This document shows positions 28,285 to 34,555 of a stretch of 64,000 nt of DNA, piece after piece; position 1 is the first letter of the stretch; every line of letters begins with the position of its first letter. Under the pieces are notes generated by a model. That model did not search any database. It saw only the letters and a program-made list of their open reading frames with translations, and was not told where the DNA came from. Source of the DNA: Escherichia coli (GTDB lineage: Bacteria > Pseudomonadota > Gammaproteobacteria > Enterobacterales > Enterobacteriaceae); assembly GCF_022846255.1 (NCBI RefSeq), contig NZ_AP025682.1; one strand, 5' to 3'. The position numbers and the translations under genes were made by a program.

Positions 28285-28824
28285 TTATACTTTGTTATTC
28301 AAAATCAGTTGCCCGTTGCTATCTAGCGGGATCTGCGTACCCGGATCGCGTTCCATGCGGATTTTGCCCTGCTGATCGCCAATCTTATAGGTCACATCAT
28401 AACCGAGCATTTTTTCTGACTTGTCATACACCGTTTTACAACGCTGTTGCGTAGTCGTGTAAGTATCGCTTTCCTGGAGAGAGCCCTGGATCTGGTTACC
28501 GGCATATCCACCACCCAGCGCCCCCACAACAGTAGCGACATCTTTACCGCGACCACCACCAAACTGATGCCCTATCACGCCACCAGCAACAGCGCCGAGC
28601 ACCGACCCGGTAATGCGATTTTCATCCTGCACCGGTCGACGATGGTTCACTGTGACGTTGCGACACTCCTGACGCGGTGTTTTAACCGTTTCCTTGATTG
28701 GGGTTGCAGAAACAACCTGAGCGTATTGCGGGCCACGTTCAAACACGTTCAGACTGGCCACTGCCGCTACGCCCAACGCAGCTGCGACACCAATCCCGAT
28801 ACCCGCCAACATTGATTTATTCAC
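28285..28824 (-). CDS. ycfJ: glycine-zipper membrane protein YcfJ
   Basis: ORF 28285-28863; probable GTG start at 28824 (MNKSMLAGIGIG...) with AGGAGGT RBS just upstream, 179 aa. Confidence 0.85.
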   Translation of the reverse strand: MNKSMLAGIGIGVAAALGVAAVASLNVFERGPQYAQVVSATPIKETVKTPRQECRNVTVNHRRPVQDENRITGSVLGAVAGGVIGHQFGGGRGKDVATVVGALGGGYAGNQIQGSLQESDTYTTTQQRCKTVYDKSEKMLGYDVTYKIGDQQGKIRMERDPGTQIPLDSNGQLILNNKV

Positions 28825-28951
28825 GGGAATACCTCCTTCTTTGCAGTTATGCCAATCATGCAAGCGAAGGAGAAAAGCAGCTATCAGACAGAAGATGAAA
28901 AGCGCGGGAATGGCTGGAAATACTTAGGGATTCGGAGGAGTCTGAAGGAAT

Positions 28952-29038
28952 GCCTGATGCGACACTTAACGCGTCTTATCAGGCCTACCGCTCGTACCAT
29001 TTGTCCAGGGCGGATAAGGCGTTTATGCCCCATCCGCC
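28952..29038. repeat. REP/BIME palindromic units
   Basis: gcctgatgcgacacttaacgcgtcttatcaggcctac and ggcggataaggcgtttatgccccatccgcc. Confidence 0.8.
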
Positions 29039-29050
29039 AGTACAAGCCGA

Positions 29051-30355
29051 TTAATGCAACTTCAAACGTGGACGGATAACGCGGTTAATACTCCCCACCA
29101 GCATCATTAATCCGGTTTTAAAGTAACCATGCAGCGCAATCTGGTGCATTCGGTACAGCGAGATGTATACAAAGCGCGCAATTCGTCCTTCAATCATCAT
29201 TGAGCCGCGTGTCAGGTTACCCATCAGGCTACCGACGGTGGAAAAGTTCGACAGCGATACCAGCGAACCGTGATCTTTATACTGATAATTTTTCAGCGGC
29301 TTACCGTTCATCTGCGCCAGAATGTTGTTCATTGCGCAGGTTGCCATCTGATGTGCGGCCTGAGCGCGCGGCGGAACAAAGCCCCCTTCCGGACGCGGGC
29401 ATGACGCGCAGTCGCCAATAGCGTATATGTCTGGATCGCGAGTGGTTTGCAGCGTCGGTTCCACCACCAGCTGGTTGATACGGTTGGTTTCAAGACCACC
29501 GATATCTTTCAGGAAGTCTGGCGCTTTGATCCCGGCTGCCCACACCATCAGATCAGCCTCAATATATTCGCCATCTTTAGTGTGCAGGCCGCCTTCATCA
29601 GCACTGGTGACCATGGTTTGCGTCAGCACGCGAACGCCAAGTTTCGTTAACTCACTATGGGCCGCAGCAGAGATACGTGGCGGCAATGCAGGCAAAATAC
29701 GTTCGCCCGCTTCTACCAGCGTTACGTTCAGGGCTTCGTTGGTCAGACCTTTATAACCGTAACTGTGCAGTTGCTTGACCGCGTTGTGCAATTCAGCGGA
29801 GAGTTCTACACCCGTCGCGCCGCCGCCGACAATCGCAATGTTTACTTTGCCATTCGCGCCCAGGTTGGCGGAGTATTTCAGGAACAGATTCAGCATCTCC
29901 TGGTGGAAGCGACGCGCCTGGTGCGGGTTATCGAGGAAAATGCAGTTCTCTTTGACACCTGGCGTATTGAAATCGTTGGAGGTGCTACCCAGCGCCATTA
30001 CCAGGGTGTCATAGGCGATTTTACGTTCCGGAACCAGCAATTCACCTTTTTCGTCGCGCAGTTCTGCAATAGTGATTGTTTTCGCTTCACGATCAATATC
30101 AATTACGGAACCCAGCTGGAACTGGAAACCATGATTGCGCGCATGGGCCAGATAGCTCAACGCATCGACGCCTTCATCAAGCGAGCCAGTCGCCACTTCG
30201 TGCAGCAGCGGTTTCCACAGGTGGCTGTGGTTACGATCGACCAGCGTAATTTTGGCTTTTTTCTTGCGTCCCAGCTTATGCCCCAGCTGTGTTGCCATTT
30301 CCAGCCCACCAGCACCGCCGCCGACAATCACAATTTTTTTCAATGGCGTAGTCAA
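29051..30355 (-). CDS. ndh: NADH:quinone oxidoreductase II (NDH-2)
   Basis: ORF 29051-30382; probable TTG start at 30355 ([17 protein letters not shown]...), 434 aa. Confidence 0.93.
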
Positions 30356-30491
30356 CGTGACCCCCTTAAATTTATTAACCAATTGTTAATTAATGGTTAT
30401 TAACATAGCTCTTAATTAACAACAGGTTACAGCAATGAAAATGTTCTTCGCTATTGAGAATAACATGAACGGTGCATTGGTCATACCAAAA

Positions 30492-30505
30492 TTGATGTTA
30501 ATCAA
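30492..30505. promoter_or_regulatory. FNR-type site TTGAT-N4-ATCAA in the ndh upstream region
   Basis: Perfect ttgatgttaatcaa palindrome about 140 bp upstream of the ndh start; ndh is a known FNR-repressed gene. Confidence 0.55.
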
Positions 30506-30627
30506 GTTTTGTTGCTGAAAAGATAGGCGACTTTACCGGGTGAGATCAAAAAACAGAGTTTATTGTTTATTATTTGAGCGAATTTGTGAGAGTGATATAG
30601 AGTGAGGGGTGTATGGAGTGCGTTCGG

Positions 30628-32345: not shown

Positions 32346-32355
32346 ACTGCTCTCC

Positions 32356-33180
32356 TTATTGTTTTATTAATAGCTGCCGCCAGGTGTCATCGGCCAGCCT
32401 GATAAATTGTTGATCGCCGGTTTGTCGCCAGCGGTACTCAAACCACCCTGCTTTGAGCATCAGCAGCCAGGGAAACCATCGCCTGACCTGACGCCATAAT
32501 TGCGCCGGATAAATCTTCGCGCGAGTGGCATAGTCATTGACCAATTGCCGGTGCTGGTCAGTATTTTCCACCCACACCGCCGCCAGTTCCAGCGCGATAT
32601 CACCATCTCCGGCATACTCCCAGTCGATGAGTTTTAACCCTGACGCGCTATGCACTAAATTTCCGGCGTGGACATCCATATGCAATGGACTTAAGCGTAA
32701 AGGCCGTGGTTCCCGCGCTTTGCGCAGACGTTTTAACCTTCGCAGCCAACCCACTGTCCGCCGCGCCGGATCGCTTTGCTGCCAGTACAGTTCCAGTAAC
32801 GGCAACAGCGTTATTCGCCAGCCAAAACGCGGTTGTTGATGTAGATAATACAGCAAGCCTGCCAGTTCGTTGGTATCCGGCAAATACGTTTTTACCTCGC
32901 CGGGCAGATAGTCGACCACCATCCAGTCACGGAGATATAAATGCGGCTTCGGTGCAATGCATGCGGGTAGTTGTGATAAAGCCCGATACTGGCGCAAGAA
33001 CGCGAACCGCGGCGCATCAGGATCGTGCGGCTGACGCACAACAAAACGCTGGCCCTGATGTTCAATGAGAAAACTCCCGCCACTAAGCCCACTATTAAAC
33101 GTCGTGACGGGATGAAACTGCGGGAAAAAGCGCGACAGCAATTCGTCGCGCGTGATGGGATTATTGCTGCGAAACGGCAC
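32356..33180 (-). CDS. thiK: thiamine kinase
   Basis: 274 aa aminoglycoside-phosphotransferase-like ORF. Confidence 0.9.
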
Positions 33181-33802
33181 CTTTACCTGACCAGATAATT
33201 TCGCCCGTCTGCACCAGCATCAGCTGCATTTGTAGGGTCGGAGCGTTAACGTTGCCAGAGGCGCTGGAGTACAGCACGTAATGAGCGCCGACATTGCGGG
33301 CAATGCCTATGGCTTTACTACGGGTACCTAAACTGTCCTGCGGCGACAAACCTAACTGTTGCTTTGCCATCGACAGCTGCTGGGCGGAAACCAGGGTAAA
33401 TTTACCGTTATTAGCCAGCGCATTTCGCAGCGTTTCGGTCGCTTCTGCGGCATTCAGCGAACCGTTAGTACGGTTGTTAACGCTATCAACCAGCAGGACG
33501 CTACCCGCAGTCACGCCGTCAGCCCCAAGCATCTTACTGACCATCGGCTGCATTGCGCCATTCCAGTCATAATGGCGAATATGCGGCGCAGGCGGTGCAG
33601 TTTGATCTTCGTGCTCAATTGGGCCTGGCTGCTGCGGGATTGTCGGCACCGATGGCACTGTGGGGACAGGCTGTTGCGGCTCGGCTGGTTGTTCCGGCGC
33701 TGGTTTCACTTCTTCTACCGGCGCAGGTTCACGTTGCCCCACACACCCGGCGAGAAACATCGCCAGCGCGGTAATCAAGGCGTAGCGACTCATTTTTGTC
33801 AT
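33161..33802 (-). CDS. lpoB: outer-membrane lipoprotein activator of PBP1B
   Basis: 213 aa, lipobox LAGC, Pro/Gln-rich linker; overlaps the thiK start by 20 nt. Confidence 0.92.
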
Positions 33803-33815
33803 CAAGATTCACCCC

Positions 33816-34193
33816 TTACAAATATAGATAAAGTCTGACTTTGTGCGCCCCCAGAAAATTGGCGCTGCCGTACAGCGTTACCGCCGAATGTGCGGGAAGG
33901 GTAACGCTGCGTGGCCTTTCCAGAGGATGCATCTCCAGCCCTCTGGCGTCATACCAGTAAAAACGATAATGAACGGTAACGGGTTCTTGCCTTTCGTTAT
34001 AAAGCGTTGAGGATGCTGAAGGTTGAATATCAGACGTCGAAAGGACGGGCTTTTCTGCACTGATGCCCGCAGCCAATAAAGATGACTCCATCACCAGCGA
34101 TTGCTCATCATTCACCGGAATTTCCGGATGTGAACGACAGCCCACCAGCACTAACAACGCCAGAGACACCAGCCCAAAGCATCCTTTTCTCAT
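33816..34193 (-). CDS. ycfL: lipoprotein YcfL (DUF1425)
   Basis: 125 aa, lipobox LVGC. Confidence 0.88.
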   Translation of the reverse strand: MRKGCFGLVSLALLVLVGCRSHPEIPVNDEQSLVMESSLLAAGISAEKPVLSTSDIQPSASSTLYNERQEPVTVHYRFYWYDARGLEMHPLERPRSVTLPAHSAVTLYGSANFLGAHKVRLYLYL

Positions 34194-34195
34194 CG

Positions 34196-34555
34196 TTACA
34201 GACCTTTATGCGCCAGCATTGGTCCCAGCGGACGGCCACCCAACAAGTGCATATGGATGTGGTAAACCTCTTGTCCGCCATGGCGGTTGGTGTTCATGAT
34301 CAGACGATAGCCATCTTCGGCAATACCTTCTTGCTCAGCAATTTTTGCCGCTACGGTGATCATGCGTCCCAGCGCCTGCTCATGCTCAGCTGACACGTCG
34401 TTCACAGTCGGAATGAGGATATTCGGAATGATCAGAATATGCGTTGGCGCTTGCGGCGAAATATCGCGAAACGCCGTTACCAGATCATCCTGGTAGACGA
34501 TATCGGAGGGGATCTCACGACGAATAATTTTGCTGAATATAGTTTCTTCTGCCAC
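34196..34555 (-). CDS. hinT: purine nucleoside phosphoramidase (HIT family)
   Basis: ORF 34196-34573; probable GTG start at 34555 ([16 protein letters not shown]...), HIT motif HIHMHLL, 119 aa. Confidence 0.9.

Follow-up and report, generated by a model that had tools for sequence, protein, structure and literature searches.

Genomic context

The stretch of DNA analysed here (the window, 64,000 nt) is the span of the Escherichia coli chromosome from icd to flgH, and its gene order is colinear with that of strain K-12. Positions 28000–35000 are 99.7% identical to strain JNE23-011 and mostly 95–99% identical to other E. coli genomes, with at least 95% identity in 5425 of 5426. The genes considered are ycfJ, ndh, hinT, hflD and flgI, for which the initial annotation had proposed GTG or, in ndh, TTG start codons. 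By identity and synteny they correspond to K-12 b1110, b1109, b1103, b1132 and b1080, respectively, and agree with these in where they start, in the codon used and in the length of the product; at most one base differs in the 25 nt preceding each start, and nothing relevant differs. The proposed codons are all present, each in frame at the 5’ end of a conserved coding region, and all five are the RefSeq starts in both K-12 MG1655 and JNE23-011.

Orthologues were compared across up to 80 species of the Enterobacteriaceae. The distinct sequences aligned numbered 75 for ycfJ and 74 each for ndh, hinT and nagZ, while thiK was aligned over 78 loci with an N-terminal indel in about 30 of them accounted for. 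The strength of a Shine-Dalgarno (SD) sequence is given as the energy of its duplex with the 16S rRNA 3’ end (kcal/mol). The initiating-ribosome data are from the literature on K-12, a strain other than that of the window; the Ribo-RET values are those quoted in INRI-seq Table S2, and a footprint peak was accepted when it lay 12–18 nt from the start, with a tolerance of ±3 nt.

The ycfJ and ndh starts

The ycfJ gene (28285..28824, complementary strand, 179 aa) begins with GTG at 28824–28822, as it does in b1110 and JNE23-011. An AGGAGGT ribosome binding site had been noted ahead of it, and AAGGAGGT does indeed lie at 28838–28831 (complementary strand), 6 nt 5’ of the GTG. This SD is conserved across genera and has a duplex energy of -13.1 kcal/mol, against +0.7 at the upstream TTG 28863. 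The aligned start codon is GTG in 68 of 75 distinct orthologues and ATG in the other seven. The TTG 13 codons upstream is present in three of the 75 sequences, and the upstream extension is broken by an in-frame TGA in E. coli E69.

The ndh gene (29051..30355, complementary strand, 434 aa) begins with TTG at 30355–30353, again as in K-12. Its SD, AAGGGGGT (30360..30367, complementary strand), is separated from the TTG by 4 nt, its GGGGGT is at least 95% conserved, and its duplex energy is -12.4 kcal/mol as opposed to +1.9 at the upstream TTG 30382. Among 74 distinct sequences the aligned codon is TTG in 62, ATG in six and GTG in six; the TTG nine codons upstream is in frame and open in just 21. 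This TTG is said to be among the first documented UUG starts. The title of Young, Rogers, Campbell, Jaworowski and Shaw (1981, Eur J Biochem 116:165) names an ndh "UUG initiation codon"; gene, TTG and preceding AAGGGGGT are the same in the window, with no difference between the two. The AT-rich sequence conserved immediately upstream of the ndh SD was considered as a PdhR operator and rejected as such, the published PdhR box being different and more distal.

The hinT start

The hinT gene (34196..34555, complementary strand, 119 aa) begins with GTG at 34555–34553, the K-12 start. The SD, AAGGA (34563..34567, complementary strand), stands 7 nt before it. AAGGAA is 97–100% conserved at this site and the remaining upstream region is not; the duplex energy is -5.6 kcal/mol versus -1.5 at the upstream TTG 34573. 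Of 74 distinct sequences, 53 have ATG at the aligned start and 21 have GTG. The TTG six codons upstream reads TTA in E. coli E69. Two HinT peptides among the TRAINSPOTTER N-terminomics rows listed map to GTG 34555 and carry Met at this codon, and these rows hold no upstream start site for hinT. The solved 119-residue structure 3N1S also begins at the residue encoded by the GTG.

The paired GTG codons of hflD and flgI

The hflD gene (3795..4436, forward strand, 213 aa) begins with GTG at 3795–3797, as in K-12, with a second in-frame GTG at 3789. The SD, AAGGAAG (3780..3786, forward strand; duplex energy -5.8 kcal/mol), lies 8 nt before GTG 3795 and 2 nt before GTG 3789, and an AAGGA(G) motif at similar spacing precedes hflD in five other genera. 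GTG 3795 is kept in Salmonella, Klebsiella, Cedecea, Enterobacter and Cronobacter, with no example of ATG. The GTG two codons upstream is missing outside Escherichia and Salmonella, and in three of five genera there are in-frame stops four or five codons upstream.

The flgI gene (62033..63130, complementary strand) encodes 365 aa including a 19-residue signal peptide and begins with GTG at 63130–63128, again the K-12 start, with a tandem GTG at 63133. Enterobacter, Cronobacter, Pluralibacter and another Enterobacteriaceae locus have ATG at the aligned position, and Salmonella and E. albertii have GTG. Two codons upstream of the aligned start, in-frame stops occur in Cronobacter and in that other locus. 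The SD duplex is weak (-5.4 kcal/mol). Since the start lies 11 nt past the flgH stop codon, initiation may be coupled to flgH.

Other non-ATG starts in the window

Two genes with non-ATG starts within 28285–34555 had been missed, so that the earlier list, although correct in what it contained, was incomplete. The nagZ gene (31320..32345, complementary strand) begins with GTG at 32345; the aligned codon is GTG in 72, TTG in one and ATG in one of 74 sequences, codons 2–4 show coding-type conservation, and INRI-seq as well as Ribo-RET is positive. The thiK gene (32356..33180, complementary strand) begins with GTG at 33180, within the 3’ end of lpoB. This GTG is found in 76 of 78 loci and is the sole ATG, GTG or TTG codon from the upstream stop to codon 13; neither INRI-seq nor Ribo-RET gives a signal at the thiK start. 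The reverse case is potB, in which the ATG at 11952, upstream of the GTG at 11982 annotated in K-12, is probably the true start and that GTG probably not.

Altogether 12 of the 58 mapped K-12 genes in the window have non-ATG starts, five of them within eight consecutive genes, and a local enrichment was considered. Under a binomial model with an assumed genome-wide rate of 12–17%, the probability of 12 or more in 58 is 0.04–0.27, and 4–22 runs of five in eight are expected per genome. There is thus no meaningful enrichment. The count is likewise within expectation for general near-cognate initiation in E. coli, in which GUG begins about 14% and UUG about 3% of the genes.

Choice of start codon

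Several features expected of a start codon coincide at all five positions. An SD sequence lies some 4–10 nt upstream, with a weak signal in flgI. ATG, GTG and TTG interchange at the aligned start of orthologues, hflD having GTG in every genus sampled, and in ycfJ, ndh, hinT and nagZ conservation from codon 2 onwards runs 100/100/variable over the three positions of each codon; upstream of the start the SD alone is conserved. Alignment to orthologues had been put forward as a check, and it supports the starts. Initiating-ribosome footprints (retapamulin profiling, K-12 literature) were a further check. In vitro, INRI-seq has a peak at each of the five annotated starts (Table S2); in vivo, the Ribo-RET values of the same table show a signal for hinT, ndh (101.8 CPM) and ycfJ and none for hflD or flgI. 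With the ±3 nt tolerance, sites 3–6 nt apart (GTG-GTG in flgI, GTG-AAC-GTG in hflD) are not separable, and the choice within these two pairs rests mainly on the comparison of orthologues. N-terminal proteomics, also suggested, bears out the Met at the hinT GTG; there are no peptides for YcfJ, Ndh, HflD or FlgI, nor entries for b1109, b1110, b1132, b1080, b1107 or b1106, among the TRAINSPOTTER rows listed. The TetRP supplements, which give revised sites only, include none of the five genes, which fits the annotated starts and is not positive evidence for them.

The longest open frames begin at TTG 28863 in ycfJ (13 additional codons), TTG 30382 in ndh (nine), TTG 34573 in hinT (six), GTG 3789 in hflD (two) and GTG 63133 in flgI (one). 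The initial annotation had called these versions unlikely to be real, a judgement upheld by the reference annotation, by alignment across species and by the literature on initiation sites and protein N-termini; it had also described them as ATG-initiated, which they are not. In none of the five genes does the frame contain an ATG between the annotated start and the nearest stop upstream, so the use of upstream ATG codons, named as the observation that would overturn the claim, is a moot point. That the longest frames are nevertheless the real genes, with N-terminal extensions from these codons, is very unlikely. The upstream codons are in frame with no intervening stop, those of hflD and flgI are near enough for the same SD to serve, and that of hflD is retained in Salmonella; but no SD precedes those of ycfJ, ndh and hinT, the upstream codons are unconserved or out of frame in most species, and the sequence around them lacks conservation of the coding type. 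The stop (ycfJ) and TTA (hinT) in strain E69, the Met, rather than Val, at the GTG in the listed HinT peptides, and the stops found immediately before hflD and flgI in several of the genera compared argue the same way, and for ycfJ, ndh and hinT the extended versions are largely refuted. It is scarcely credible, on the other hand, that translation begins at a downstream ATG, at 28812 in ycfJ (codon 5), 32333 in nagZ (codon 5) or 30298 in ndh (codon 20). ATG is the preferred start codon, and that at codon 5 is 100% conserved in both ycfJ and nagZ. Against this, codons 2–4 vary synonymously at the third position with the first and second invariant, as coding sequence does; the ycfJ ATG would have its SD 18 nt away; at the position of the ycfJ GTG itself, seven species carry ATG; the peaks of INRI-seq and those of Ribo-RET lie 12–18 nt from the annotated starts and not 12 nt further downstream; and a start at codon 20 of ndh would lose the region of the conserved GGGAGG nucleotide-binding motif.

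A small share of the ribosomes might also initiate at an upstream codon, in flgI (GTG-GTG), hflD (GTG-AAC-GTG) and possibly hinT (the TTG at -6), which would yield low-abundance proteoforms beside the annotated product. We think this unlikely. One SD is common to the tandem codons, and TRAINSPOTTER gives alternative sites for 14.6% of its unique start-site coordinates, one of them in the window (potA, at a TTG six codons downstream). Yet the five genes have no in-frame alternative either in INRI-seq Table S3 or among the TRAINSPOTTER rows listed, and the upstream codons of hflD and flgI are unconserved. A difference in FlgI would in any case vanish with cleavage of the signal peptide, which removes the N-terminus and leaves the mature protein uninformative on the start. 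As Salmonella retains the GTG at -2 of hflD, both GTGs may be used together there. We would give rather little credence to the proposal that codons 63133 and 63130 of flgI, 3789 and 3795 of hflD, and TTG 34573 and GTG 34555 of hinT are used jointly with minor proteoforms, or that the run of five non-ATG starts in eight genes from hinT to ycfJ reflects, rather than chance, selection for jointly low translation of an envelope and respiration cluster.

Initiation from GTG and TTG in all five genes, with the longer frames spurious, is supported by annotation, alignment and published data. We are highly confident that these are ordinary near-cognate starts of conserved E. coli housekeeping genes. 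They are already known and annotated in the reference genome, and the observation is correct but routine.

Mechanism and significance

In the established mechanism of near-cognate initiation, an SD motif 4–8 nt upstream would position the 30S subunit with the GUG or UUG codon in the P site, where initiator fMet-tRNA would decode it with a mismatch at the first position. The protein would still start with Met because the initiator tRNA reads these codons. The longer open frames would be untranslated leader or intergenic sequence that is stop-free by chance. The genes of the window do not differ from general bacterial near-cognate initiation in the SD-positioned GUG or UUG, the initiator tRNA or the N-terminal Met.

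A gene caller that takes the longest ORF or admits only ATG would set the N-termini of these five genes, and of nagZ, thiK and others, wrongly. In the reference annotation they are already correct, and the importance of the finding is one of annotation quality only. Reporter measurements in the literature place initiation from GUG and UUG below that from AUG, at roughly 10–100% of it. In keeping with such textbook behaviour, the putative role of the weaker start codons is probably to hold expression of these proteins down to modest levels.

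Position of the start codons

All K-12 (MG1655) CDS starts were mapped onto the window, 58 K-12 genes being placed in this way. By gene order the window represents K-12 1.134-1.196 Mb in reverse orientation, beginning with icd, rluE, nudJ, mnmA, hflD, purB and phoPQ, including in its middle part ycfJ, ndh, ycfP, nagZ, thiK, lpoB, ycfL, hinT and fhuE, and ending with rne and flgLKJIH. The segment 28000-35000 finds a match in 5425 of 5426 complete E. coli genomes, and is 99.7% identical in JNE23-011, a near-identical strain annotated by PGAP.

The initial annotation proposed non-ATG starts for five genes, each of which coincides exactly with the K-12 reference start: hflD (GTG 3795, + strand, 213 aa), ycfJ (GTG 28824, - strand, 179 aa), ndh (TTG 30355, - strand, 434 aa), hinT (GTG 34555, - strand, 119 aa) and flgI (GTG 63130, - strand, 365 aa). 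The same five starts are annotated in JNE23-011; all are already known from the reference annotation and the literature. The ribosome binding motif claimed for ycfJ, AAGGAGGT, is present 6 nt 5' of the GTG. The longer ATG-initiated versions of these genes do not exist, there being no ATG between the annotated start and the first in-frame upstream stop in any of the five; the use of upstream ATG codons, put forward as the counter-evidence, is therefore inapplicable. At their longest, the ORFs open with TTG 28863 (ycfJ, 13 codons longer), TTG 30382 (ndh, 9), TTG 34573 (hinT, 6), GTG 3789 (hflD, 2) and GTG 63133 (flgI, one codon longer).

Frequency of non-ATG starts

Twelve of the 58 mapped genes (hflD, potB, ldtC, ycfJ, ndh, nagZ, thiK, hinT, fabF, plsX, yceQ and flgI) lack an ATG start. 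E. coli uses approximately 83% AUG, 14% GUG and 3% UUG, and about 88% of starts in the current K-12 annotation are ATG. With a non-ATG background of 12-17% the binomial probability of at least 12 in 58 is 0.04-0.27, and the frequency is nothing unusual. Two of these genes, nagZ (GTG 32345) and thiK (GTG 33180), lie within 28285-34555, the interval to which the initial annotation referred, and were absent from its list. Five of the eight consecutive genes there (hinT, thiK, nagZ, ndh, ycfJ) have non-ATG starts; such a run has a binomial chance of 0.001-0.005 per eight-gene window, with 4-22 expected per genome, and is probably due to chance.

Upstream alternatives

A scan based on Ndh yielded 80 Enterobacteriaceae loci with 10-kb flanks, counted below as distinct sequences unless loci are stated. 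The aligned start codon is GTG in 68 and ATG in seven of 75 sequences for ycfJ; TTG in 62, ATG in six and GTG in six of 74 for ndh; ATG in 53 and GTG in 21 of 74 for hinT, the GTG occurring within this set only in Escherichia, Salmonella and Citrobacter; and GTG in 72, TTG in one and ATG in one for nagZ. For thiK, 76 of 78 loci start with GTG. Variation among the aligned codons is confined to the first base. In ycfJ, ndh, hinT and nagZ a 100/100/variable pattern of conservation runs from codon 2 onwards, and the Shine-Dalgarno (SD) sequence is the sole conserved part 5' of the start. The TTG start of ndh is a historic case, that of Young et al.

The upstream candidates of ycfJ, ndh and hinT were rejected as poorly conserved, closed or absent in relatives or in another E. 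coli strain, E69. The ycfJ TTG at -13 is present in 3 of 75 sequences, and E69 carries an in-frame TGA inside this extension; the ndh TTG at -9 is in frame and open in just 21 of 74; and E69 has TTA at the position of the hinT TTG at -6. Duplex energies with the 16S 3' end favour the annotated starts: -13.1 vs +0.7 kcal/mol upstream for ycfJ, -12.4 vs +1.9 for ndh and -5.6 vs -1.5 for hinT. Starts at the ATG in codon 5 of ycfJ and nagZ were ruled out, codons 2-4 evolving as coding sequence and the SD being too distant.

For hflD and flgI orthologous proteins were located and their DNA compared. The hflD GTG is retained, with AAGGA(G) upstream, in Salmonella, Klebsiella, Cedecea, Enterobacter and Cronobacter; among these genera and Escherichia the GTG at -2 is confined to Escherichia and Salmonella, and in-frame stops occur at -4/-5 in Klebsiella, Enterobacter and Cronobacter. 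The hflD GTG is very probably the real start. At the position aligned with flgI 63130, Salmonella and E. albertii have GTG, and ATG is present in Enterobacter, Cronobacter, Pluralibacter and one additional Enterobacteriaceae locus; this additional locus and Cronobacter have stops two codons upstream. These comparisons favour 63130 over 63133, and a start there gives a 19-residue signal peptide, as in most orthologue predictions among the matches listed. We consider the flgI GTG likely to be genuine.

In Salmonella and several Citrobacter which start hinT with GTG (loci L009, L011, L019, L023) an in-frame ATG without an SD lies six codons upstream; E. coli has TTG at this place (34555-34575, - strand).

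Published initiation data

Initiating-ribosome profiling in vitro (INRI-seq) of K-12 detected the annotated starts of flgI, hinT, nagZ, ndh, ycfJ and hflD (Table S2, PMC9825163). The in vivo Ribo-RET column of that table gives 69 for hinT, 9 for nagZ, 102 for ndh and 24 for ycfJ, and zero for hflD, flgI and thiK. Table S3 contains no in-frame alternative start for the five genes, and for ycfJ just one out-of-frame ATC in one replicate (PMC9825163). Since a peak counts in INRI-seq if it falls at a distance of 12-18 nt (PMC9825163), the alternatives of ycfJ, ndh and hinT (12-39 nt off) are separable, that of hflD (6 nt) is barely so, and the flgI tandem (3 nt) is inseparable.

N-terminal proteomics, suggested as a check, bears out hinT: the K-12 N-terminal peptides in rows 236-238 of TRAINSPOTTER Table S1 are all attributed to the GTG at position 1161885 and carry Met at this codon, which is direct proof of initiation there, and none of the rows listed gives an upstream N-terminus (PMC13245402). 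The solved structure 3N1S is of a 119-residue HinT. Annotation, orthologues and published initiation or N-terminal data agree that the five GTG/TTG starts were correctly interpreted, and those of ndh, hinT and ycfJ are almost certainly real.

The lack of thiK signal in INRI-seq as well as in Ribo-RET (PMC9825163) suggests very low or coupled translation. thiK begins within lpoB, its GTG being 20 nt from the lpoB 3' end (overlap 33161-33180, - strand).

Other loci

potB shows the reverse pattern to the five genes, probably an upstream ATG instead of the annotated GTG. Its K-12 RefSeq start, GTG 11982 (+ strand, 275 aa), has an SD duplex of just -0.9 kcal/mol, compared with -11.4 kcal/mol, a strong SD, for ATG 11952, which is in frame and is chosen by PGAP in JNE23-011 (285 aa). 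Tetracycline ribosome profiling lists it as a "new site ATG -30" (PMC4909307), and ATG 11952 is probably the true start. For potA, TRAINSPOTTER Table S1 row 241 holds an N-terminal peptide starting at a TTG six codons downstream of the annotated ATG (approximately 10850, region 10832-10852, + strand; PMC13245402). This TTG, if used, would be an additional near-cognate start, shortening PotA by six residues.

In ldtC three consecutive possible starts, TTG-GTG-ATG, occupy 26045-26053 (+ strand); K-12 and PGAP alike use the GTG, giving 320 aa beginning MM. The K-12 annotation includes yceQ (51618-51938, - strand; GTG, 106 aa), which lies antisense to the leader region of rne; PGAP does not call it in JNE23-011, and whether it is a gene appears doubtful.

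Conservation among 77 distinct Enterobacteriaceae sequences is unusually high over the 170 nt that precede the TTG of ndh. This region (30371-30510, - strand) contains an FNR-like TTGATnnnnATCAA and the published PdhR box TTTTGGTATGACCAATG. An AT-rich element, TTAATTAACAATTGGTTAAT (approximately 30392-30373, - strand), adjoins the ndh SD; a PdhR half-site-like AATTGGT lies within it, as does the upstream in-frame codon TTG 30382.

The rne-flgL gap (55259-58417) measures 3.2 kb; the corresponding gap is about 1 kb in JNE23-011 and about 0.2 kb in K-12. Within it lie, in this window, genes for a TacA-like antitoxin (55391-55684) and a GNAT acetyltransferase toxin-like protein (55666-56175), which would form a toxin-antitoxin pair, and IS200-like Y1 (56304-56762, - strand) and IS4 (56903-58231, - strand) transposases.

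Significance of the weak start codons

Initiation at these GUG and UUG codons would be of the standard SD-directed kind, with fMet-tRNA. In reporters such codons give 10-100% of AUG initiation, and the weaker start codon may have been selected to limit expression. Its long retention across genera (TTG in ndh; GTG in ycfJ, nagZ and thiK) fits such selection; some lineages have switched freely to ATG, so any constraint on the weak start codon is not strict.
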